64,000 nt of DNA, taken from positions 29,424 to 93,423 of the forward strand of contig JAWLCD010000001.1 of NCBI GenBank assembly GCA_041687355.1, read 5' to 3'. Of this stretch, positions 308 to 64,000 are shown piece after piece (the first letter of the stretch is position 1; each line of letters opens with the position of its first letter). The stretch comes from Clostridia bacterium (GTDB lineage: Bacteria; Bacillota; Clostridia; Acetivibrionales; UBA4821). The translations under genes and the position numbers were made by a program. The notes beneath the pieces were generated by a model. It was not told the DNA's origin and ran no database searches. It was given only the letters and a program-made list of their open reading frames with translations.

Positions 308-2482
308 CTATTCAACTTCGGTCGGAGCAAACTCCACTTTGATTTCAGTGCCCATCTGGACTTCGGTACCTGCAGCAGGCTCCTGTCTAATTACTTCTCC
401 AGACCCCAGTATCCTGATATTCAGGCCAAGGTCTTTGAGAATCCTTGCAGCCTCCAGCGCCGTCTTCTTCCCCAAATCCGGGACTGTTACCCTTTCTGCC
501 TCTCCACCTTCATTAGTAAATAGAATGACCTGCGATTTTGCGGATATAACTACATCAGGCTTGGGACTTTGCTGATTAATAACCGCTTCGTCTCCCATAT
601 CCTGGCCGCTCACCCTGTATTCCAGTCCTGCCTCTTTAAGGATTGTCTTCGCATCCTTTAGGGTCTTACCCCTAACCTCAGGCACCCTTACTTCACTTAC
701 CGCCATCTCCTCAGGTGAATATCTGGGCTGAATTTTCAAATATGGCAGAATGTCTGCAAGAATCCTCCCTGCTACAGGTGCAGCGATAGCACCTCCCATA
801 TGGCTTTCACCTTTGGGGTCGTTCAACACAATCAGGACTGCCACTTCAGGATTGTCAGCCGGTGCAAGCGCAACAAATGATGCTACGTAAACGCCTGTAT
901 TGATACCCTGATCAGCCGTACCGGTCTTACCGGCTACTCTGTACCCACTTACTTTTGCCCCCGAACCTGTACCTTCAGACACCACACTTTCCATAATATC
1001 TCTCATAACAGCCGAGGTTTCGGAGGAAATAACCTGTCTTACCACCTGAGGTTCCAATCTCTGGATAATGTTCCCCTCTTGGTCTCTAAGCTCTTTAACC
1101 AATTGGGGCTTCATAAGCTTCCCTCCATTGGCAACAGCTGAAACTGCAGTTATTAGTCCGATAGGTGTTACCTTTATCCTCTGCCCGAATGAGATGGTAG
1201 CCAGCTCAACCGGTCCTATCCTAGCCATATCATGGAATATCCCTTGAGCCTCACCTGGAAGTTCTATACCAGTTTTGCTCTGCAGGCCAAAGGCATTAAT
1301 ATACTTGAAGAATTTCTCTTTGCCCAGTCTCTTTCCCACTTCAACAAATACTGGATTACAAGAGTTCTGTACCGCCTGCTTGAAGGTCTGAAGTCCATGT
1401 GTTCTTCCATAGGCGAGCCTCCAGCATTTTATTCTATGACCCTCGACCACTGTGTAGCCTGTACAGGTAAAATTCTCCTCAGATTTAACAATACCTTCTT
1501 CCAGGCCAGCCACTGACGTCATAATCTTGAATGTTGAGCCCGGTTCATATGTATCAGCAACAGCAGGGTTTCTCCACATCCTCTGCAAAGCAAGACTCCG
1601 TTCCTCTCTGGTCATATTGGTCCACTCTGCCTTCAGATCTTCAGTGTTAGGTTCAAAGGGGTTGTTAAGGTCAAAGTCCGGTTTAACCGACATAGCCAGT
1701 ATTTCTCCGGTTCCCGGCTTCATTACAATGGCAATTGCTCCCCCAAGACATTTGTTGTCCACAACTGCATTTTCTATGTGGCGGTCTGCAATATGTTGAA
1801 TTGTTTCATCAATTGTTAAAACAACGTTTGTTCCGTCTTTAGGGCTGATAAACCTTTCCTTTTTAAAAGGCATATCTTTTCCACTTGCGTCAGTTTCAGA
1901 CACTATTCTTCCGGGTAGTCCTTTCAGAACCTTCTCGTAGGTCAGCTCTATTCCATCCAGCCCCTGGTTGTCAGTTCCGGTGAAACCAATCACATAACTT
2001 GCAAGGCTGTTATAGGGATAATATCTCTTTGTATCTTCATTGATTTTTATTCCCAGGATATCATTATCTAAAATCCACTTTCTTATAAGCTCTGTTTTAT
2101 CCATTTCAACTCTACGTTTGACAACTTCAATTGAACTGGCCTTATTTGATGCCTTCTTAAATACCTCATCATAATCCATGTCAAGTATTTCACTAAGTTT
2201 TCTTGCTACCTCTTCTGCATTCTCTATCTGCTTGGGAATAACACTGACAGTGTCCACCGAGGCACTGATAGCAAGTTCCTTGAGATTCCTATCATAAATA
2301 GTACCCCTCTTGGGATTTATTATTCTATCTCTGGTCTGCTGCTCTATCGCCATGCGTTGAAGTTCAGCCCCATTAACAATCTGAATCCATCCTGTTCTAA
2401 ATATTAGCAAAGCTACTATTATTGAAAATAGTAGCAATAGCACGAACTCTCTTTTTCTGATTTTCAGGCCCGGTACAGCCAA
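308..2482 (-). CDS. Class B penicillin-binding protein (FtsI/PBP2B/SpoVD family) with two C-terminal PASTA repeats
   Basis: 724-aa ORF with a TTG start behind ggggagggg. It has an N-terminal TM helix, a dimerisation domain and transpeptidase motifs (STFK, KTGT). Two PASTA-like repeats sit at the C-terminus, and the gene is in dcw context. Confidence 0.9.
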   Translation of the reverse strand: MAVPGLKIRKREFVLLLLFSIIVALLIFRTGWIQIVNGAELQRMAIEQQTRDRIINPKRGTIYDRNLKELAISASVDTVSVIPKQIENAEEVARKLSEILDMDYDEVFKKASNKASSIEVVKRRVEMDKTELIRKWILDNDILGIKINEDTKRYYPYNSLASYVIGFTGTDNQGLDGIELTYEKVLKGLPGRIVSETDASGKDMPFKKERFISPKDGTNVVLTIDETIQHIADRHIENAVVDNKCLGGAIAIVMKPGTGEILAMSVKPDFDLNNPFEPNTEDLKAEWTNMTREERSLALQRMWRNPAVADTYEPGSTFKIMTSVAGLEEGIVKSEENFTCTGYTVVEGHRIKCWRLAYGRTHGLQTFKQAVQNSCNPVFVEVGKRLGKEKFFKYINAFGLQSKTGIELPGEAQGIFHDMARIGPVELATISFGQRIKVTPIGLITAVSAVANGGKLMKPQLVKELRDQEGNIIQRLEPQVVRQVISSETSAVMRDIMESVVSEGTGSGAKVSGYRVAGKTGTADQGINTGVYVASFVALAPADNPEVAVLIVLNDPKGESHMGGAIAAPVAGRILADILPYLKIQPRYSPEEMAVSEVRVPEVRGKTLKDAKTILKEAGLEYRVSGQDMGDEAVINQQSPKPDVVISAKSQVILFTNEGGEAERVTVPDLGKKTALEAARILKDLGLNIRILGSGEVIRQEPAAGTEVQMGTEIKVEFAPTEVE

Positions 2483-14289: not shown

Positions 14290-14552
14290 TAATTTTTAAA
14301 CATGTAATAACTAAAAACCCCCGTCCATTCTAAATGGACAGGGGCGAAAGCTTCTCTCGCGGTACCACCCTGATTACCGGACCCTCCGGTATCTCTTTAA
14401 CCTTAACGCGGCAAACGTCACCACCTACTTCAAGTTCGGCAGAGCTGCTCCCGGGCGGCTTTCGCACCGAATCTACCGGGCACCTCTCACCAGCGGTTCC
14501 CTCTCTTCAGGTTAGACTCTGTACTACTTTCCCGTTCAAAGCATTTGGCTTT
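14290..14552 (-). promoter_or_regulatory. T-box riboswitch leader of alaS
   Basis: The minus strand contains the T-box sequence AGGGTGGTACCGCG (14361-14348). It also has the stem I elements GGGAAAGTAGTACAGAG and CTGAAGAGAGGGAACCGCTGGTGAGAG. A terminator lies just before the alaS SD. Candidate Ala specifier codons (GCU/GCC) occur in gagcaGCUcuGCCgaa, but I cannot assign the specifier with certainty. Confidence 0.85.
14303..14334 (-). terminator. T-box terminator hairpin
   Basis: The minus strand reads cccctgtccat-ttaga-atggacggggg followed by ttttt. Its 5' half can alternatively pair with the T-box sequence. Confidence 0.8.
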
Positions 14553-15836: not shown

Positions 15837-15933
15837 AAAATGAATTAACTGGCGAATAAGTTTGCGGAGACATCTTAGATAAACTATGCGAGGCTATGCT
15901 AGAATTTCAGGAAGAATTGACAGGACGTCAATT
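15837..15933. repeat. Intergenic repeat family 1, copy 1 (partner at 42891-42987)
   Basis: About 97 nt, roughly 85-90 percent identical to 42891-42987 in the same orientation. The shared blocks are gaattaactggcgaataagtt, tagataaactatgcga and gaagaattgacaggacgtcaatt. It contains the perfect inverted repeat GAATTGAC-aggac-GTCAATTC. Confidence 0.8.
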
Positions 15934-16002
15934 CTAGGAATTACTGAGCCACGATGGCGAATTAATTCCGGTCTAAAACTTGGTATAACAAGCATTCAGT
16001 TT

Positions 16003-16048
16003 ATCTCGATTTTGCAGTCCTTATGAGCAGTTAATTTATTTTCCCTTA
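16003..16048. repeat. Direct repeat DR2 (partner at 15764-15808)
   Basis: See DR1. The two copies flank about 190 bp that includes family-1 copy 1. Confidence 0.7.
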
Positions 16049-42890: not shown

Positions 42891-42987
42891 AAAACGAATT
42901 AACTGGCGAATAAGTTATGAAGAAATCCTAGATAAACTATGCGAAGTTATGCTAAAATTTCAAGAAGAATTGACAGGACGTCAATTT
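42891..42987. repeat. Intergenic repeat family 1, copy 2 (partner at 15837-15933)
   Basis: Same orientation and blocks as copy 1. It ends 8 nt from the yabG stop codon. Its inverted repeat is GAATTGAC-aggac-GTCAATTt. Confidence 0.8.
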
Positions 42988-42994
42988 ATAGATA

Positions 42995-43873
42995 TCAGTG
43001 TGAAACCCGCGGCCCCCCTATGCGTGCTTTTCCTCTGGTCTGCACTCCACCAATTCCGTCAAATCCTGTATTTGTGTTCTCAACAACTTCATTAATGGAT
43101 AAAATTCTATCTATCCCTGTACTTGCAACCCTTTCAGCTACAATCACCGGATCCAGGGCATTAATAAGAATCCGTTTAGGTGAACTGGAAAAATTGGCTC
43201 CTGCATCAAGTATTGCTTCGTAGTTTGACTGACACGCTCCGGCAAATATAACAAGATTATCAAGAGATTTTTCATATTTTCTGGCCTGTCTGACTGCTTC
43301 AACAAAGTGCTTTGAGTTTCTGTAGTTGTCAAGCAGGGTGTAATCCTGACTTCCCTTAACCATACCGTCATGCCCTGTAAGCACAAGTATATCCGGGTTA
43401 TGCTCCTTGAGCAGTTCCATAACTCTCAGCGGCTGCTCTTCTTCGGGAACTTCAACAACTTCTGCATTCAGTCCCAGATTATTATAATAGTCCCTGCATT
43501 TTTCCACAAATTCTTCTGCTCCATCCATATGCAGTATCTTCCCTGCTCTTTCAAACATATCCATAGTTCTGTAAAACGGGACCTTTGTCTGACTTAAAAA
43601 CTCTTTATCCCTCTTTGTTTTTATGTTCTGAATACTTTTTCTCACCCAAGTATCTATTTGCCTGGAGCTTTTATCAGCTTCATCATCTGAAACCATTTTC
43701 AGGTCCTCCTCAGGGGAGTCAGCCTCTATCCTGTAATCTACCCCCCTGAGAATCACGTTTTTATCTCCTGTTTTATCCCTGCTGATTTTGGTAACCCTGA
43801 ACATCAGGTCACCTCCGTAAGACTTTCTTACCACTAAATCTCCAACCTTGATACCTGACATATTCTTCTCCAC
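42995..43873 (-). CDS. yabG: Sporulation-specific peptidase YabG
   Basis: 292 aa with YabG-like sequence throughout (GDLVVRKSYGGDLMFRV, VLTGHDG, FAGACQS). Confidence 0.85.
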   Translation of the reverse strand: MEKNMSGIKVGDLVVRKSYGGDLMFRVTKISRDKTGDKNVILRGVDYRIEADSPEEDLKMVSDDEADKSSRQIDTWVRKSIQNIKTKRDKEFLSQTKVPFYRTMDMFERAGKILHMDGAEEFVEKCRDYYNNLGLNAEVVEVPEEEQPLRVMELLKEHNPDILVLTGHDGMVKGSQDYTLLDNYRNSKHFVEAVRQARKYEKSLDNLVIFAGACQSNYEAILDAGANFSSSPKRILINALDPVIVAERVASTGIDRILSINEVVENTNTGFDGIGGVQTRGKARIGGPRVSH

Positions 43874-52359: not shown

Positions 52360-52761
52360 TTAGTCATGCATAATTGCTATGGCTTCTATTTCTACCTCGA
52401 CATCTTTGGGAAGGCGGGATACTTCTACACATGAGCGTGCAGGAGGTTGGTCTTTGAAGTACCTCCCATACACCTCATTCACTTCTGAAAACCGGTTCAT
52501 ATCCTTTATAAACACCGTTGTCTTAATTACATTATCAAGACTGCTTCCAGCCTCTTCAAGGAGACCAGCCAGATTATCCAAAACCCTTTCGGTCTGAACC
52601 CTGATATCTCCGGCTACTACCTGCCCTGTTACAGGATCTAGAGGAATCTGACCCGATGTATAAACCATACCCCCAACCCTTACTGCCTGTGAGTAAGGCC
52701 CGATAGCTGCAGGAGCCTTTCCGGTTGAAACAGTTTCCTTATGCACGCCGTGCTGACACAT
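52360..52761 (-). CDS. ridA: RidA/YjgF-family reactive intermediate deaminase
   Basis: Start trimmed to the ATG at 52761, after ggggtgag. It contains [14 protein letters not shown]. The upstream extension in the ORF track is encoded by repeat family 2 and is interrupted by stop codons in the other copy. Confidence 0.9.
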
Positions 52762-52784
52762 ATTCTCACCCCGTTCTTCATTTA

Positions 52785-53025
52785 TCCGATGACTACCGCC
52801 GCTAAGACTCCCCTCTTCTTCAAGTGGGAGCATCAAAGATGGACACTATCGCTAAGATTTCTCTGAAATCAAGCGACTAGTAGTCTACGGCGGCACTACG
52901 TCCCTGGATAACGGCTTCTAAGATTCAGATGAAGCACACAAGGTGGACAATGATTTCTAAGTTATCAAAGATAACAAGAAATTATTAGCCAAAAAACTCC
53001 ACCTGAATCCAAGAATCCTGTTTAT
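52785..53025. repeat. Intergenic repeat family 2, copy A (expanded form; partner at 57232-57361)
   Basis: It shares three blocks with copy B in the same orientation: tccgatgactaccgNcgctaagactcc...agtgggag, ctacgtccctggataacggcttctaagattcag, and aaaaaactccNcctgaatccaagaatcctgtttat. It also has two extra self-complementary insertions. Confidence 0.85.
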
Positions 53026-53047
53026 CCTGTTCGGGTTCAGCCATCGC

Positions 53048-55525
53048 TTACTGCACTACGATGTTTACCAGCTTCTTGGGTACAATAATAATATTGGCAA
53101 CTGACTTTCCTTCTATCAAGCTGCGGACTTTTGGACTCTCCATAGCAGCTTTTTCAGTCTGTTCCCTGTCCAAGCCGGCAGCAATACTAATCCGGTCTTT
53201 TACCCTTCCATTTATCTGTATTACAATTTCAATCTCTTCTCTCACCAGTACACGTTCATCATACTTCGGCCAGTTCTGATTGTGAACGCTCCCTTTACCC
53301 CCTATTAATTCCCATAATTCTTCGGTAATATGCGGGACAAACGGAGCAAGTATGGTTATCAGGTTTTCCAGCGCCTCTTTGACAGCCAGTGGATTCCTTT
53401 CTTCTGCAGTCACTTTCTCTCTATAGTAATACAAGGAGTTTACCAGTTCCATTACTGCACTTATTGCGGTATTGAAGTTAAACCGTTCTGAGATATAATC
53501 AGTAACCTTTTTAACAGCTGAATGCACGGCGTACCTCAACTCCTTGTCAGCCTGCGGTAGGTTATCGGGAATTTCACCATGGACATTTATTATAAGCGGT
53601 TGAAACTCCTCGACTATTCTCCAAACCCTGTTCAAGAACCTGTAGCAGCCTTCCACCCCTTGATCACTCCATTCAAGGTCCTTTTCGGGAGGCGATGCAA
53701 ACAGTATGAAAAGTCTTGCCGTATCAGCGCCATATTTATCTATAATTTCCTCAGGACTTACAACATTGCCTAAGGATTTGGACATTTTTGCCCCATCCTT
53801 TAAGACCATTCCCTGCGTAAGCAGGTTGGTAAAAGGTTCCTCTACCGGCACGAAGCCCATATCATGCAGTGCCTTTGTAAAAAACCGGGAGTATAAAAGA
53901 TGAAGTATTGCATGTTCAACTCCCCCGATATATTGGTCTACAGGCATCCAGTAACCTACATTTTCACTACTGAAGGGTTCATCCGGGTTTGTCGGGTCAC
54001 AGTACCTGAGGTAATACCACGACGAGCATACGAATGTATCCATCGTGTCGGTCTCTCTTGTGGCCTTCCCTCCGCACGTAGGACACTCTGTGTGGATAAA
54101 CTCCTCACTTGCAGCCAGAGGTGACTGGCCTCTCCCGGTAAATTTAACATCTGTGGGCAGCACTACAGGAAGCTGGTCTTGAGGTACCGGAACAATGCCG
54201 CATTTCTGACAGTAAACAATAGGTATAGGGGCTCCCCAGTACCTCTGCCTCGATATCAGCCAGTCCCGAAGCTTGAAGTTAACCTTTCTCTTCCCGAGCT
54301 TGTTCTCTTCAATATAATCTACTATCTTACTTATCATTTCACTACTGCTAATACCGTTAAACGGCGGGGAATTTACCATTACCCCTTCCCCATCATATGC
54401 CTCAGTCATGGAATCTCCATCCATCTGGCTTCCTTCAGGCTGTATTACAACTCTGACAGGGAGATTATACTTGCGGGCAAATTCAAAATCCCTTTGGTCA
54501 TGTGCAGGCACACCCATAACTATTCCGGTACCATATTCGAGTAGGACATAGTTTGCAATAAACAGCGGTATCTTCTCTCCATTGAGGGGGTTTACTGCAT
54601 ATCTACCTGTAAATACACCTTCCTTCTCGGTTTCATTGGAAGTCCTGGTTATTTCATTCACGTGTTTTATCCTGTTTATCAGGTCTCTGCATGCTTCCTC
54701 ATATGGTGTACCGCCAATCAGTTCTTCAACCATAGGATGCTCAGGTGCAATAACCATATAGGTTACCCCAAAGATTGTATCAGGCCTGGTTGTATAGACT
54801 ACCATGCATTTTCCTGAGCCCTCAATCTTAAACTCTATTTCTGCTCCTTCACTTCTGCCTATCCAGTTCTCCTGCATAATCTTGACCTTTTCCGGCCAGC
54901 CTTTAAGTTTATCGATGTCATCAAGCAGTCTCTGTGCATACTCGGTTATTCTGAAGAACCACTGTTCCAAATCTTTCTTCCCCACCTCGGATTTACACCT
55001 TTCACACTTTCCATTTACCACCTGCTCATTGGCCAGTACTGTTTCACATGATGGGCACCAGTTGACATTAGACTTCTTCTTATAGGCAAGCCCCTGGTTA
55101 TATAACTGGAGGAACATCCACTGTGTCCACTTGTAATAATCCGGCTTGCACGTAGCAACCTCCCTGTCCCAGTCATAGCTCAGTCCGAGACTCTTCAGCT
55201 GATTCCTCATATTATCGATGCACGAACAGGTCCATTTATCAGGATGAATTCCGTTTTTAATGGCGGCATTTTCGGCTGGAAGCCCGAATGCATCCCACCC
55301 CATGGGATTGAGAACACTATGTCCCTGCATCCTCTTGAATCTTGCCACAACATCTCCGATAGAATAGTTTCTTACGTGTCCCATATGAAGATTCCCCGAC
55401 GGGTAGGGAAACATAACAAGAGAATAGTATTTCTTCTTACTCTCGTCACGTTCAACCCTGAAAGCTTTTTCATCTTCCCATGATTCCTGGCGCTTTTTCT
55501 CTATAGCTTTGAAATTATATGCCAT
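53048..55525 (-). CDS. leuS: Leucine--tRNA ligase
   Basis: Start trimmed to the ATG at 55525 ([11 protein letters not shown]), after gggaggg. It has the HMGH and KMSKS motifs. The start lies 1 nt after the rsfS stop. Confidence 0.97.
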
Positions 55526-55526
55526 C

Positions 55527-55889
55527 TTATGCCCTCCCATTTTCATCCTGCAGAACTTCTTCTGCGTCTGCCCATATTCTTTCCAGATTATAAAACAGCC
55601 TGTCATCCCTGTGGAATATATGCACAATAATGTTGTTGTAATCCATCAGAATCCACCTTGCACTGCTGTAGCCTTCAGCATGATGCAGCTTTACATCTCT
55701 CTCCTTCAGCCTTTGCTCAACTTCATCGGCAAGGGCCTTTATATGAGTTGTAGATGTACCGCTGCATATGACAAAATAATCAGCTATCAGGGTAATATCC
55801 TTTACGTTCAGTACCTTTATATCTTTAGCCTTTTTATCTTCGAGAACTTCCACAACAAAATCCAAAACCCTAGTCTCAACCTTATTCAA
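55527..55889 (-). CDS. rsfS: Ribosome silencing factor RsfS (Iojap-like)
   Basis: 120 aa containing [20 protein letters not shown]. Confidence 0.9.
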
Positions 55890-57135: not shown

Positions 57136-57231
57136 AGTATATTTAGGCCTTCTCCTCAATAATTACTTCTAAAAAAGTATAACACTACCGTACTCAATTT
57201 TCAATTTCCTGAAACTTGTACTTCAGGGTTT

Positions 57232-57361
57232 GTCCGATGACTACCGACGCTAAGACTCCTCTCCTCTTCTAGTGGGAGACAAGCGGCGCTACGTCCCTGG
57301 ATAACGGCTTCTAAGATTCAGTTGGACAAAAAACTCCTCCTGAATCCAAGAATCCTGTTTA
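57232..57361. repeat. Intergenic repeat family 2, copy B (compact ~130-nt form)
   Basis: See copy A. It lies in the divergent spacer between nadD and the glycosyltransferase gene. Confidence 0.85.
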
Positions 57362-57422
57362 TTATTTACAGGTATAGGTGATTGCTATATAATTTACCTA
57401 CACTGGTAGTGGAGGTAAATCA

Positions 57423-61366: not shown

Positions 61367-63319
61367 CTATTGATCAAAATTCCCCTTGAGTATTCCTATT
61401 CCCCTGCTCTTGACAAGGTCGGTCAATGCATCAACAACACTGGGACTAAACTGTGAACTTTTGCATCTTATGATTTCTATTACTGCCTCTTCCTCGGTCA
61501 GTGCCTTCCTATATGCCCTGTTTGAAGTCATGGCATCCAATGCGTCCGCAACTGAAATAATCTGAGCTTCAATTGATAACTGGTCATTGGTTATGCCAAA
61601 CGGATATCCTTTGCCGTCCCATCTTTCATGATGGTAAGCTATTGCCCTCATAGTTCCTTCTGATAGTCCTACAGGGCTCAGAATTCTCCCACTTATTGTC
61701 GGATGCGTCTTAATCTGTTCAAATTCCTGATCGGTGAGCCTTGAAGGTTTACTCAGTATTGCATCGGGTATCCCTATCTTTCCTATATCGTGCAGTATTC
61801 CTGCTATTCTAATCTCATCAATCTGTTCCTTAGGCAGTCCCATCTTTTCAGCCAGAATCACAGCATACTTCGATACCCTGTATGAATGACCTTCGGTATA
61901 CTTATCCTTGGCTTCGATTGCAGCTATCAGAGCATTAACGGTTTTCACGAAATTCTTTTTTGACAAATCGAACAGCCTGGCATTATCTATTGCAATGGCA
62001 GCATTGTTTGCAATAGAACAAAGGAGGTTCTTCTTCCTTGAATTGAATCTCCCGGTAGTTCCAACCGTAAGCACACCTATACGCTTGTCCTTTGTTGCAA
62101 TGGGCGCCATTAACAATTCATTTATTCTTTCATTCTCTTTTTTTGTGGCATTGATTCTGGTAATAAGTTGACTGTCACTCGCATCATGTTTGATTACTGC
62201 ATCTGATGCATGAGTCACTTCACAGAACAGGGCATCGTCTATATCATATATGCCAAAATCGCTTATATCCTTAACCTCACCATTGAAAAAGTCTCCTGCA
62301 AATGCTTTGGGAATAAGCTTGGTTCCGGTTTCATCATATATTCTCAGCGTGCAGAGCGAATTTTTTAAGACCCTGCAGATTTCCTGAACGACCAGGTTTA
62401 AAACATTTTCAATTTCGAGTGATGCATTCAGCTTCCTGCTCAGGTTGTTTATAGTGGCCAGTTCTTTATAGGAAGAGATTATTTCCTGCTCCATCATTTT
62501 CTTCTGGGTAATGTCCCTCAGGATAGCCTGTATACCTATAATTTCACCATCGTAGATAAAGTTGGTAAGCGTAGCTTCAACCAGAACAATAGCACGGTTT
62601 TTTGCCATTAGCTCCAACTCAAGTGCCAGAGAATTTTTAGTCTTCAGTTCGTTACTGACCCTTTCAAAAAAGTTCTGAGAAATGTCAGGTTTAATTAGCT
62701 GTTTTATGCTTCTTCCTTCTACCTCTTGTTTGCTGTACCCAAGAATATCCTTGATCATTTCGTTAATAAAGTATATGGTGCCGTCCAATCTGATTACACA
62801 GACTATATCGGTGATATTCTTGACCAGGGAGTAATACTTCTGTTCTGAATCGTTAAGCTGATTTATGGTTGCCTGCAGCTGACCATATGATGCCTCAAGC
62901 TCGGTATTTGCCTGCTGTATCTCCAGGTTCTTTGCATATATTTCAAGAGCCTGAAGCTCAATTTCTCTTTTATCTTCCTTCAGTTTTTCAGTCATTGCCC
63001 TGTAGTCGCCCTCCAAATCATTGAATTCTTCAACGTCTGGAAGCTGTATCTTCTGATTGAAATCTCCAGTCTGTATGGCAATAATTGCCTTCTTGATTTC
63101 GCTAAGAAAACCGGTCCATATTTCATCTATGTACCGGTAGCACAGGTAAACCAGAAAAAGACTGACCGCAAGCACAAGAAACACGCCAAGCTTAAAACCT
63201 TCAAGTGTGTCCTGGGTAAATTCAAGGATATGGGCCAAAGCTGCAACAGCTATTACTGGTAATACGACGGCTATTGCAAGCAGTAAACAAATTTTTTGCT
63301 TAAAGCTCCTAATCTTCAT
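61367..63319 (-). CDS. Membrane sensor with HAMP, coiled-coil, PAS, GAF and HD-GYP domains (putative c-di-GMP phosphodiesterase)
   Basis: Start trimmed to the ATG at 63319 (MKIRSFKQK), after aggggaaag. It has two TM helices, a HAMP domain, a PAS domain (ITDIVCVIRLDGTIYFINE), a GAF-like block, and the motifs HDIGK and HHERWDGKGYP. Confidence 0.85.
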   Translation of the reverse strand: MKIRSFKQKICLLLAIAVVLPVIAVAALAHILEFTQDTLEGFKLGVFLVLAVSLFLVYLCYRYIDEIWTGFLSEIKKAIIAIQTGDFNQKIQLPDVEEFNDLEGDYRAMTEKLKEDKREIELQALEIYAKNLEIQQANTELEASYGQLQATINQLNDSEQKYYSLVKNITDIVCVIRLDGTIYFINEMIKDILGYSKQEVEGRSIKQLIKPDISQNFFERVSNELKTKNSLALELELMAKNRAIVLVEATLTNFIYDGEIIGIQAILRDITQKKMMEQEIISSYKELATINNLSRKLNASLEIENVLNLVVQEICRVLKNSLCTLRIYDETGTKLIPKAFAGDFFNGEVKDISDFGIYDIDDALFCEVTHASDAVIKHDASDSQLITRINATKKENERINELLMAPIATKDKRIGVLTVGTTGRFNSRKKNLLCSIANNAAIAIDNARLFDLSKKNFVKTVNALIAAIEAKDKYTEGHSYRVSKYAVILAEKMGLPKEQIDEIRIAGILHDIGKIGIPDAILSKPSRLTDQEFEQIKTHPTISGRILSPVGLSEGTMRAIAYHHERWDGKGYPFGITNDQLSIEAQIISVADALDAMTSNRAYRKALTEEEAVIEIIRCKSSQFSPSVVDALTDLVKSRGIGILKGNFDQ

Positions 63320-63544
63320 CTTTCCCCTACTTCCACTGATTATGTCACTACTCAGAGAAATAAAAACCTGCAAGGGTTAACCAAATAAAGAAGAATATCG
63401 ATATGTTTCAAAAGTTACTTGTCAGCCCGCTTTTTACAGGCCGGTCAGACTAAAAATCAAAAGGCAATATTTTCATATATGCATATTATACCACACAATG
63501 ACATGAGTTTGAAGATTTGAATTATTTTTTGTATCCTGATTTTT

Positions 63545-63578
63545 AATAAAAGTATTTTAGGGCAGCCAAAGCCGCCCC
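63545..63578 (-). terminator. Terminator-like hairpin after the SRP RNA
   Basis: The minus strand reads gggcggc-uuug-gcugccc (one G-U pair), followed by uaaaauacuuuuauu. Confidence 0.5.
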
Positions 63579-63593
63579 ATAGAATATTTAAAT

Positions 63594-63865
63594 GGCTGTG
63601 CACCTTTTCTTTGACACACTGCCTATAAGCGCTACATATGCAGACAGCTCAAATCAGGTTGCCTCACGGCACACAAGAGTGACTACTTACCGCTGCTTCC
63701 TTCCGGACCTGACGGGGTTCATAGCTTCCTGTTGCGCAAGACCTGATTCTCATAACCACCCAACACATGTCAGACCTTACAGAAAGCGGCCTATGAAAAG
63801 GAATTAAGCCCTGCTGCAGCGGATTGCAGGTACAGGGCACCGCTACCTCCCCGCCTAGCACAGCC
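63594..63865 (-). ncRNA. ffs: Signal recognition particle RNA, long (Bacillus-type, Alu-domain-containing) form
   Basis: The minus strand begins GGCTGTGCTAGGCGGGGAGGTAGCGGTGCCCTGTACCTGCAATCCGCTGCAGCAGGGC. It contains the domain IV core GTCAGGTCCGGAAGGAAGCAGCGGTAAG and ends AAAGGTGCACAGCC. It is collinear with the B. subtilis scRNA as I remember it. Confidence 0.9.
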
Positions 63866-63924
63866 AAAACATAACATATTCTTTCCTAATCCAATAACCG
63901 TTTCATTTTTCAAACAGCTACTCC

Positions 63925-63953
63925 ATTATAGGTTAAATAAACATTTTTTTCAA
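63925..63953 (-). promoter_or_regulatory. SigA-type promoter upstream of the SRP RNA
   Basis: The minus strand has TTGAAA (63953-63948), a 17-nt spacer and TATAAT (63930-63925). This is about 55 nt upstream of the inferred mature 5' end. Confidence 0.55.
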
Positions 63954-64000
63954 TGATTAATTAATGTAAATACTCATTTTCTATACGCTTACATACTCTC

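Follow-up and report, generated by a model that had tools for sequence, protein, structure and literature searches.

On the minus strand of the 64-kb window (the whole stretch of DNA analysed) the leuS reading frame ends at position 53048 and the ridA ATG is located at 52761-52759, which leaves a leuS-ridA spacer of 286 bp. Nearly all of it is taken up by one element, designated copy A (Table 1), which measures 245 nt with its nested modules and whose 3' end lies 20 nt before the ridA ATG. These 20 nt include GGGGUGAG, the ridA ribosome-binding site, which is intact 3' of the element, and a terminator scan placed a terminator-like hairpin at 52365-52338, after ridA. An earlier note, made from the sequence of this region, had described an element of this extent with several helices, two insertions and a core recurring elsewhere in the window; the coordinates of the helices, of both insertions and of the second copy (copy B) were borne out to the base.

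Table 1. Genes and repeat features in the window
Feature	Position	Strand	Support or remark
leuS	53048..55627	-	upstream of copy A; Pfam leucyl-tRNA synthetase domains
ridA (RidA/L-PSP family)	52360..52761	-	Pfam PF01042 (Ribonuc_L-PSP), E 4.5e-47
Copy A: one full repeat unit (5'-ATAAAC...CATCGGATAAA-3') with two nested half-units	52781..53025	-	fills the leuS-ridA spacer
P1 5' arm GGAUUCUUGGAUUCAG, with conserved CUUG motif	53003..53018	-	P1 pairs covary across the family
Nested, diverged P1-like putative half-unit in P1 loop	52935..52990	-	alignment to copy B, fold
P1 3' arm CUGAAUCUUAGAAGCC, with conserved CUUAG motif	52913..52928	-	
Central junction GCCGUUAUCCAGGGACGUAG	52896..52915	-	invariant alignment columns; scan pattern for copies
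P2 outer stem 5' arm CCGCCG	52888..52893	-	
Nested, diverged P2-like half-unit	52834..52888	-	alignment to copy B, fold
P2 inner purine-rich hairpin CUCCCAC...GGGGAG	52808..52831	-	
P2 outer stem 3' arm CGGCGG, preceded by conserved GUCUUAG	52796..52801	-	
Conserved 3' tail UAGUCAUCGG and terminal pentamer AUAAA	52781..52795	-	end logo, invariant columns
Copy B: canonical 134-nt unit without nested modules	57229..57362	-	R1 138 bits, E 4.6e-27

Parts and fold of copies A and B

Covariance model R1 recognised copy A over its full length (96.8 bits, E 1.8e-18), and copies A and B were the only two that it found in the window. Both share three conserved stretches, 21-33 nt long, and every one of these has exactly two exact matches in the window, where 0 are expected from shuffles. 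On folding, the minus strand of copy A reached -93 kcal/mol (z = -6.5, with none of 200 shuffles as good) and the plus strand -76 kcal/mol. Copy B is flanked by two divergent promoter-like sites, at 57365-57393 on the plus strand (11/12 matches) and at 57204-57176 on the minus strand (10/12, with TG).

The long hairpin P1 has the form described earlier, with arms of 16 positions that contain two mismatches (A.G and U.U) and one G.U pair. The module in its loop consists of a hairpin (52948-52987) followed by AUUGUCCACC, which resembles GUUAUCCAGG, and its motif order suggests a half-unit of the repeat. The same insertion, different by 1 nt, is present in a related MAG at L016:188-377 and in L017/L015; the repeat also accounts for the contig breaks of L017 and L015, both of which end inside one copy. 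The P2-like half-unit is built of a hairpin at 52845-52881 (UCGCUUGAUUUC-AGA-GAAAUCUUAGCGA) followed by UAGUGUCCAUC, and it is also carried by the MAG copies L006 and L016:5670-5853. Neither module is found in copy B.

The central junction, where conservation within the family is highest, pairs through its GUU with the 5' AAC and through its UCC with the 3' GGA (pairs 4-6:61-63 and 65-67:137-139). The CCGCCG/CGGCGG helix of P2 surrounds the CUCCC...GGGAG hairpin as previously noted. Four pairs of this outer stem covary, with 9-20 double compensatory changes each, and its variants include CGCCGC/GCGGCG, CGCCAC/GUGGCG and CAGUGC/GCACUG; the family consensus of the inner hairpin is CUCCCAC-UUAUAGAA-GUGGGAG. 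Conservation within the family ends exactly at the terminal pentamer of the 3' tail.

Anatomy, covariation and ends of the repeat unit

The canonical unit, of ~126-134 nt, is composed of 5'-AT(N)AAC, P1, the GUUAUCC junction, P2 and CAUCGG-AYAAA-3', with the pentamer AYNAA/AYAAA at each end. On the folding strand, which is the minus strand in the window, it forms two adjacent imperfect hairpins: P1, with the conserved CUUG and CUUAG in its arms, and P2, made up of an outer stem, the sequences UUAUCU and GUCUUAG, and a hairpin inside. GUUAUCC between the hairpins is invariant and paired with AAC of the left end and GGA of the right end, so that both element boundaries come to lie at the hairpin foot. 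An AAA located 3' of the junction is also strongly kept. One subfamily has GUAG next to a GC-rich hairpin, and others have UCUA, AUAG or UUAG.

The earlier note had taken the element for a structured, modular, RNA-like one, and this was confirmed, as the helices covary in an alignment of 45 diverse copies and the variable insertions sit in hairpin loops. In this alignment 96.4% of cells were paired and double changes were seen in 13 pairs and 100 cells, a level reached by none of 500 shuffles, while slid controls were 26-48% paired. G.U/U.G pairs were found 93 times and A.C/C.A 18 times, an excess which indicates that one strand is the folding strand. Junctions and ends are nearly invariant across copies: in the end logo, conservation extends from A-T-N-A-A-C to CATCGG-A-Y-A-A-A, the flanks are random, and the unit includes neither a conserved promoter nor a conserved terminator.

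The unit ends are direct pentamer repeats. Terminal inverted repeats are absent, as the left end ATAAACAGGATTC and the right end, TTTATCCGATGAC in reverse complement, have nothing in common. End pentamers are identical in 28 of 83 units and different in the remaining 55; of the 30 units with C or T at position 3 of the left pentamer, 27 have A at position 3 of the right one. A simple target-duplication model was rejected, since the pentamers differ in two-thirds of units, and the nested sites permit a duplication of AT at most.

Copies, gene context and insertion sites

The central 20-mer of the repeat gave 27 exact matches, distributed over 18 contigs of a single related Clostridia MAG, in which copies are single or arranged in head-to-tail arrays, and one diverged copy was found in another MAG. 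A gapped-pattern scan of metagenome contigs yielded 59 real loci, and model R1 applied to the metagenome loci gave ~90 full or partial matches. One copy is carried by a Clostridium tetani plasmid (R1 99.7 bits); it was the only match of a blastn search of 72,556 plasmids, although bcr1-bearing Bacillus plasmids were among them. The hosts of the repeat are thus Clostridia MAGs and C. tetani. No match to it was present in a phage collection and viral contigs.

The copies are intergenic and lie next to housekeeping genes unrelated to one another. Both orientations occur: relative to both neighbours the direction was the same for 21, opposite for 28, divergent for 10 and convergent for 3-5 arrays. 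With gene orientation as a proxy, no replication-strand bias was seen. Clustering of 543 flanking ORFs gave housekeeping families only (Mur ligase, ABC transporter, Ddl, FlgE and others); no protein family, including RAYT- or TnpA-like genes, was recurrent beside the copies, and no gene of a mobilising enzyme occurred in any locus examined. Scans for an autonomous parent, in which an ORF would stand between the left and the right end, gave nothing convincing. A look-up of strains with or without the element returned no record of the exact RidA and MGDG synthase proteins.

In line with the earlier impression that no known riboswitch or leader family is involved, Rfam 15 at the gathering threshold detected in the whole window only SRP RNA, a T-box and TwoAYGGAY, all of them elsewhere, and a permissive E-value search of 52500-53300 gave chance-level matches of at most 18 bits. 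A literature search by sequence string brought nothing relevant, and the published stem-loop families Clot-1 (C. tetani) and Clop-1 (C. perfringens) were rejected because their sequences differ. The reverse strand reads CCGAUGA, as in a hammerhead, but that candidate was dismissed for lack of a GAAA core and of an Rfam ribozyme match.

Filled and empty sites together with nested ones place the insertion at AT^A(A/G)A; the ATAAA target is TTTAT on the other strand. In head-to-tail arrays the common junction is GGAYAAAC|AGG. The ssb-rpsR spacer contains a copy in locus L061; in the window the same spacer is empty and ~25 nt long. Where one unit is nested in the P2 loop of a second (L021, L022), the sequence reads CCCAC(T/A)TAT^[NAAC...CATCGGAT]AG(A/T)AGTGGGAG. 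The TwoAYGGAY RNA, intact in the window (CTTAGATAAACTATGCG), is filled in MAG copies, CTTAGACAAAC[AGGATTC...CATCGGATAAAC]TATGC. All four TwoAYGGAY insertions carry one subfamily variant. Independent targeting of this RNA was downgraded on that account, and the four may descend from a single insertion spread as a composite.

Relatives and origin of the repeat

Group A of the bcr repeats comprises bcr1-bcr3 of the B. cereus group. bcr1 has been described as restricted to this group and is not known to have a mobilising enzyme, its mechanism having stayed unsolved for about 20 years. The bcr1 copies (ATAAAG...GGGATAAA) fold into two adjacent hairpins. Like bcr1, the Clostridial repeat is non-coding and interspersed, measures ~130-155 nt and occurs many times over in intergenic or operon spacers; both have ATAAA (read as TTTAT from the opposite strand) at either end, lack terminal inverted repeats and form two long, imperfect hairpins next to each other. 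Common to both is the motif order ATAAA-P1-UUAG-AUC..GGAC-stem-UU(G/A)AUC-CCCAC...GUGGG-GUCUUA-stem-..GGAUAAA, with UUAG in the P1 3' arm. They differ in hosts (Bacilli versus Clostridia), in the P1 internal loop and in the central junction sequences; the Clostridial repeat has in addition an extra P2 GAC/GUC helix and a NUAG/NUA loop, and tandem arrays, nested units and half-units are prominent in it.

MAFFT mis-registers the 5' half when it aligns bcr1 and the Clostridial units, and covariance models were used instead. Model R2, built from bcr1 only, gave as its top seven matches in 36.6 kb Clostridial units, which it matched on the correct strand and over their full length (29.3-16.3 bits, E 3.6e-5 to 0.058). 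For copy B of the window it scored only 11.6 bits (E 0.73). In the opposite direction, the best match of R1 in one bcr1 locus was bcr1 itself (14.4 bits, E 0.028), and another comparison of R1 with bcr1 scored 9.6 bits. The nhmmer similarity was not significant (E 0.1-0.4), and no blastn-level similarity to bcr1 was found in the search of 72,556 plasmids. Because the copy B and nhmmer scores are weak, the claim of homology rests on other members of the family and on the shared architecture; given the Clostridial hosts, the repeat would be a relative in a wider superfamily and not bcr1 itself. For bcr1 a TTTAT-linked 'site-specific recombination-like' mobility has been described, with TTTAT (ATAAA) at the element ends (PMC6542083, PMC6199540), and about half of the bcr copies are transcribed within UTRs or operon spacers (PMC3446304).

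Other families are less close. BOX of Streptococcus pneumoniae is likewise modular, highly structured and intergenic, with variable internal modules, frequent co-transcription with neighbours and no known dedicated transposase; it differs in its unrelated sequence, in the lack of ATAAA ends and in the arrangement of boxA-boxBn-boxC in series, where the Clostridial modules are nested in hairpin loops (PMC3049150). With REP/BIME (RAYT) and the PATEs of IS200/IS605 the repeat has in common hairpin dependence, covarying stems, lack of terminal inverted repeats, short specific target or cleavage motifs beside hairpins and tandem arrangements. REPs are single hairpins of 20-40 nt with a fixed GTAG or CGTC tag, usually in inverted pairs (PMC3733652), whereas the Clostridial unit has 130 nt and two different hairpins, is always head-to-tail and does not conserve GUAG. 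Its subterminal hairpins, absence of inverted repeats and duplication, and insertion 3' of a short motif are compatible with PATEs. Classical MITEs (RUP, Correia) are also short, non-coding, multicopy, intergenic and foldable, but they are bounded by terminal inverted repeats and duplicate a target of fixed length, neither of which is seen here, and a classical MITE was ruled out on the missing inverted repeats and the differing pentamers. The alternative of the earlier note, a nested miniature mobile element, proved the better reading: many copies at unrelated sites were indeed found, though not the inverted repeats and target-site duplications named there.

That the two window copies arose by local duplication, or are a chance pair of stable hairpins, has a negligible probability: their number in 64 kb might suggest it, but the exact 21-33-nt blocks and ~90 homologues elsewhere with compensatory changes already refute it. 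A functional structured RNA, with the copies themselves functional, we regard as unlikely, whether it acts in cis on ridA translation or on what becomes of the leuS-ridA mRNA, or serves as an sRNA or protein sponge. The strong covariation with a one-strand excess of G.U over A.C would agree with such a role, as would the invariant unpaired motifs (CCGUUAUCCAGGGAC, UAGUCAUCGG, CUUAG), the location of copy A and of the C. tetani copy, each of which stops ~20 nt before a start codon, and the many copies that take up a short spacer within an operon, where they would be transcribed, as bcr repeats often are (PMC3446304). The orientation of copies is, however, random (28 antisense versus 21 sense to flanking genes), no gene family accompanies them, the unit brings no conserved promoter or terminator of its own, its flanks are random, copy B sits between divergent promoter-like sites, and Rfam has no match; tandem and nested copies and presence or absence at orthologous sites are the behaviour of a repeat element. 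The reading preferred in the earlier note, a cis-regulatory RNA or sRNA of the leuS-ridA locus, was not upheld in view of the dispersed copies with neither gene-family link nor orientation preference.

A remnant of a single-stranded DNA transposon of the IS200/IS605 (PATE) or REP/RAYT type, in which an HUH/Y1 transposase would act on the hairpins and GUUAUCC would guide it to (GG)AUAAAC cleavage sites at both ends, is doubtful. No Y1 transposase or RAYT gene was met in 0.56 Mb of flanks (a non-exhaustive search), there is no lagging-strand-type orientation bias with gene direction as proxy, the AAA so strongly kept 3' of the junction is not needed for IS200/IS605 targeting, and the GUAG that one subfamily has beside a GC-rich hairpin, an arrangement seen in REPs of the GTAG type (PMC3733652), gives way to UCUA, AUAG or UUAG in the others. 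The missing inverted repeats and strict duplication (pentamers different in 55/83), the subterminal imperfect hairpins with conserved irregularities, the one internal heptamer complementary to both ends and the end that recreates a target, giving tandem arrays, would fit this type. An integron-like attC site, solo or clustered and without integrase, is very improbable and already largely refuted. The P1 imperfect hairpin, bounded by AAC/GUU and with unpaired or mismatched bases, is reminiscent of R''/R' (RYYYAAC/GTTRRRY), and the folding is single-strand specific. ATAAAC and GTTATCC, however, fit these boxes only at AAC/GTT, nothing in attC corresponds to the obligatory P2, tandem units have no cassette ORFs between them, there is no integrase nearby, and copies are scattered among housekeeping genes.

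We consider it probable that the element is a copy of a non-coding, non-autonomous Clostridial interspersed repeat, a distant relative of bcr1. Its distribution and the filled and empty sites suggest that the repeat is mobile, presumably via a single-stranded intermediate and an enzyme acting in trans. The folded single strand would be the substrate of a putative recombinase or transposase supplied in trans, and units would insert at AT^A(A/G)A with neither terminal inverted repeats nor strict target duplication. The 3' end of the unit would itself recreate a target, which would account for head-to-tail arrays, for units in the loops of other units and for the half-units of copy A. At leuS-ridA, copy A appears to be a passenger inserted into a short operon spacer. 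It is probably read through within the leuS-ridA transcript, its co-transcription being passive, and ridA most likely owes its expression to read-through of the 245-nt hairpin-rich spacer. Such read-through could influence mRNA processing or stability, and any influence of copy A on ridA by way of mRNA structure or stability would be secondary.

The covarying family is new to Rfam 15, and from structure alone it would pass for a riboswitch or an sRNA; recognised as a repeat, it should no longer give rise to mistaken regulatory annotations in genomes and MAGs of Clostridia. With it the known range of bcr1-type repeats widens beyond the B. cereus group to Clostridia, C. tetani among them, and the base-level junctions with an internal heptamer complementary to both ends offer testable predictions on movement. 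Tentatively, and with less than even chances, we suggest that bcr1 in Bacilli and the Clostridial repeat are two branches of an ancient Firmicutes-wide superfamily of two-hairpin elements, in which the folded single strand, its internal guide heptamer paired to both ATAAA-type ends, would direct its own site-specific insertion at AT^AAA by an undescribed mechanism or enzyme. Candidate activities would be a host-encoded one, an HUH-like one or a step at the RNA level. If this is true, the covarying stems, nested units and tandem junctions of the Clostridial repeat would be comparative data for the mechanism.

The unpaired junctions are deeply conserved across divergent hosts, beyond what is seen in many selfish repeats, and this would also fit a function at the level of the host or of the RNA.

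Copy A, copy B and the structure of the unit

The 286-bp leuS-ridA spacer holds copy A of a repeat whose shorter copy B lies in the same window (see the table). The sequence description of this element in the earlier note matched exactly: the helices it named and the two extra insertions fell at the coordinates it gave, both by folding and by alignment to copy B, and the core recurred as claimed. Three conserved blocks are each present at exactly two places in the window, against a chance expectation of none. A search of Rfam 15 was negative under both gathering and permissive thresholds; that note had recognised no known riboswitch or leader family. The folding energy of copy A is -93 kcal/mol on the minus strand (z = -6.5) versus -76 kcal/mol on the plus strand.

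Features in the window and in fetched loci (L-numbers) carrying or compared for the repeat; MAG, the related genome Clostridia bacterium 30dZY2.bin.108
Feature	Position	Strand	Remark
leuS	53048-55627	minus	Pfam
ridA	52360-52761	minus	Pfam
Copy A	53025-52781	minus	5'-ATAAACAGGATTCTTGGATTCAGG...GGTAGTCATCGGATAAA-3', inside leuS-ridA spacer
Copy B	57229-57362		shorter copy
T-box leader	14337-14548	minus	Rfam, 125 bits; unrelated to repeat
Large SRP RNA	63596-63863	minus	Rfam, 204 bits; unrelated to repeat
TwoAYGGAY, window	15837-16020	plus	RF01731, 15862-16020
TwoAYGGAY, window	about 42891-43075	plus	
TwoAYGGAY, MAG	L002:2590-2747		intact
TwoAYGGAY, MAG	L013:3879-4037		intact
TwoAYGGAY, MAG	L004:3550-3686		with unit
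TwoAYGGAY, MAG	L010:550-706		with unit
TwoAYGGAY, MAG	L014:5082-5238		with unit
Nested units	L021:2975-3190		
Nested units	L022:2097-2325		
G/C-rich repeat	L008:~660-760		after array
G/C-rich repeat	L018, downstream of 5243	minus	after array
Split unit	L062:7540-7985		DUF1659 gene inside
C. tetani plasmid region	L082:2276-3138		repeat near gene trio

The canonical unit is 126-134 nt long; conservation begins exactly at ATNAAC and ends exactly after CATCGGAYAAA, and the flanks are random. It consists of two adjacent hairpins, P1 and P2, separated by one A. P1 follows the plan AAC-AGGRUUCUUGG...CUUAGAARCC-GUU, with an invariant basal helix, a conserved U.U/G.U irregularity in CUUG/CUUAG and a covarying distal helix, while P2 reads UCC-AGG-GAC-NNNN-[6-bp stem]-UUAUCU-CCCAC...GUGGG-AGUCUUAG-[stem]-NUA-GUC-AUC-GGA. 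As a result of this layout around the single-A junction, the central GUUAUCC is complementary to both unit ends, AUAAAC on the left and GGAUAAA on the right. The two hairpins share the plan stem-CUUG-stem-loop-stem-CUUAG-stem-GU..UC(C/A) and probably go back to a duplication followed by divergence. The same plan recurs in the two extra modules of copy A: the P1 loop contains a half-unit resembling P1, and P2 contains one resembling P2. Since each is found independently, nearly unchanged, at other MAG loci (L016, L006, L017/L015), they are propagating subfamily variants and not local accidents.

In the covariation test standard pairs were formed in 96.4% of cells (26-48% in slid controls), double-sided changes affected 13 of 32 pairs (100 cells), and 0 of 500 shuffles equalled the observed covariation values. 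The outer stem of P2 occurs as CGCCGC/GCGGCG, CGCCAC/GUGGCG, CAGUGC/GCACUG, CACCGC/GCGGUG and CUCCGC/GCGGAG. G.U/U.G pairs greatly outnumber A.C/C.A (93 versus 18); therefore one strand, in the window the minus strand, is the one that folds.

Distribution and genomic setting

Covariance model R1, built from 45 diverse units, detected no window copy other than A and B (96.8 and 138 bits, respectively); in the fetched loci its true hits numbered about 90. In a scan of species-representative genomes the central 20-mer GCCGTTATCCAGGGACGTAG had 27 exact matches in 19 stretches, 18 of them from the MAG and one from another Clostridia MAG. The former is a congener of the window organism, of another species; window 61967-64000, which includes the SRP RNA, has a syntenic counterpart on its contig L013 (85-89% identity). 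The gapped pattern CCGTTATCCAGG-N28-58-TAGTCATCGG was present on 62 metagenomic contigs from many projects, three being chance matches within genes. Among 72,556 plasmids blastn detected the repeat once, in a plasmid of Clostridium tetani (71.9% identity; R1 score 99.7 bits); like copy A, this copy ends ~20 nt ahead of a start codon. Phage and viral collections yielded no copy. MAG contigs L017 (3' end) and L015 (5' end) terminate within one repeat copy, their terminal sequences overlapping, so the repeat breaks short-read assemblies.

The earlier note favoured a cis-regulatory RNA or sRNA, with a nested miniature mobile element as the alternative. Some units stand alone and others form head-to-tail arrays, which share GGAYAAAC followed directly by AGG. 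Almost all are intergenic; many fill a short spacer inside an operon, as copy A does, and their ATAAAC often takes in the TAA of an upstream gene. Arrays are co-directional with both neighbouring genes in 21 cases, opposite to both in 28, between divergent genes in 10 and between convergent genes in 3-5. Clustering and Pfam analysis of 543 flanking ORFs revealed no recurrent neighbour and no transposase. Copy B sits precisely between its region's two best promoter-like sites, both directed outward, and need not be transcribed. Taken together, these data argue against a cis-regulatory RNA or sRNA gene and for an interspersed repeat. No promoter-like or terminator-like site was found inside the leuS-ridA spacer, and therefore translation of ridA most likely uses a transcript that reads through from leuS and carries the folded element; the 20 nt between copy A and the ridA ATG hold the ribosome-binding site GGGGTGAG. 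A putative regulatory effect of copy A on ridA would be secondary, if any. The mobile-element alternative stands in modified form, as a dispersed repeat: unit ends bear no terminal inverted repeats, and a simple target duplication is excluded because the terminal pentamers are identical in just 28 of 83 units (one subfamily has ATCAA or ATTAA on the left and ATAAA or ACAAA on the right).

Insertion sites

The intact TwoAYGGAY RNA of the window reads ...CTTAGATAAACTATGCG..., and MAG copies in L002 and L013 are likewise intact. Those in L004, L009, L010 and L014 are interrupted by a unit at precisely that position, CTTAGACAAAC[AGGATTC...CATCGGATAAAC]TATGC; one variant is common to all four units, which may go back to one insertion event that afterwards spread as a composite. 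In L021 and L022 a complete unit occupies the P2 apical loop of another, with base-precise junctions CCCAC(T/A)TAT^[NAAC...CATCGGAT]AG(A/T)AGTGGGAG, the host loop continuing exactly at the interruption point. The ssb-rpsR spacer holds a copy antisense to the operon in L061 and is empty in the window (about 25 nt). Together, these sites give AT^NAAC as the left junction and CATCGGAY^A(A/G)A as the right one, with an ATAAA-like target (TTTAT on the other strand).

Upstream of every TwoAYGGAY copy lies a conserved 26-nt box, AAAAYGAATTAACTGGCGAATAAGTT (repeat families D2 and D13), and the first window copy alone reaches the Rfam gathering score. In several MAG copies the repeat is embedded in the 5' stem and its 3' end restores the stem strand (GGAUAAACUAUGC). 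In L008 and L018 the position expected for the TwoAYGGAY body, after the arrays, is taken by a separate G/C-rich repeat, cccctccctgatgagaggggag...cccctcccttgatgggaggggattaaggggagggtg; it contains CUGAUGAG, and no Rfam ribozyme reached gathering score in these loci.

Probable relation to bcr1 and proposed mode of spread

The bcr1 repeats of the Bacillus cereus group (sequences from the supplement of PMC2267715 and Bacillus plasmids) read ATAAAG-TGAAACTTTAATCAG...CTGATTATTAGTTGAACC-AATCGGAC-...-GGGCAG-TTGATC-CCCCACC...GGTGGGG-GTCTTA-CTGCCC-...-GGGATAAA and fold into two adjacent hairpins, with ends, hairpins and motifs in the same order as in the Clostridial unit. With copy B as query, blastn against plasmids returned the C. 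tetani copy only and no Bacillus (bcr1) match; nhmmer with the Clostridial profile met bcr1 in register at E 0.1-0.4. Of two bcr1 loci searched with R1, bcr1 was the best match in one (14.4 bits, E 0.028) and scored 9.6 bits in the other. Model R2, built from 11 bcr1 copies alone, had Clostridial units as its top seven matches in 36.6 kb of Clostridial loci, full length and on the correct strand (29.3-16.3 bits, E from 3.6e-5 to 0.058), and gave copy B 11.6 bits (E 0.73) in window 34000-64000. The Clostridial family is probably a distant bcr1 relative in a wider superfamily, not bcr1 itself, and the element would add a new Clostridial member to the structured interspersed repeats of bcr1 type. 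For about half of bcr copies, transcription occurs as part of a UTR or operon spacer (PMC3446304). The stem-loop families Clot-1 and Clop-1, published for C. tetani and C. perfringens, differ from it in sequence and are unrelated, and an attC-like reading fails on consensus boxes and context.

The element is ordinary as a locus feature, but its probable cross-class link and its precise junctions bear on how bcr1-type repeats move. The fold is strand-specific, covarying and two-hairpin, and its hairpin bases coincide with the element boundaries. A trans-acting enzyme would recognise the folded single strand and join it at AT^AAA; the 3' end of the element would recreate the target, giving arrays, and the internal GUUAUCC may guide both of them into place. 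Although attractive, an IS200/IS605- or RAYT-like HUH mechanism finds no support: no such gene was seen among the flanking ORFs, orientation bias is absent and GUAG is not conserved.

In L062 a split unit encloses a 75-aa DUF1659 gene (Pfam E 2e-25); the 5' arm of P1 is ~110 nt upstream of the gene's start, and the TAG of the unit's CUUAG forms its stop codon. The repeat of the C. tetani plasmid lies downstream of a YvrJ/DUF1659/DUF2922 gene trio, ~260 nt away. This proximity may be coincidence or a cargo-like association.
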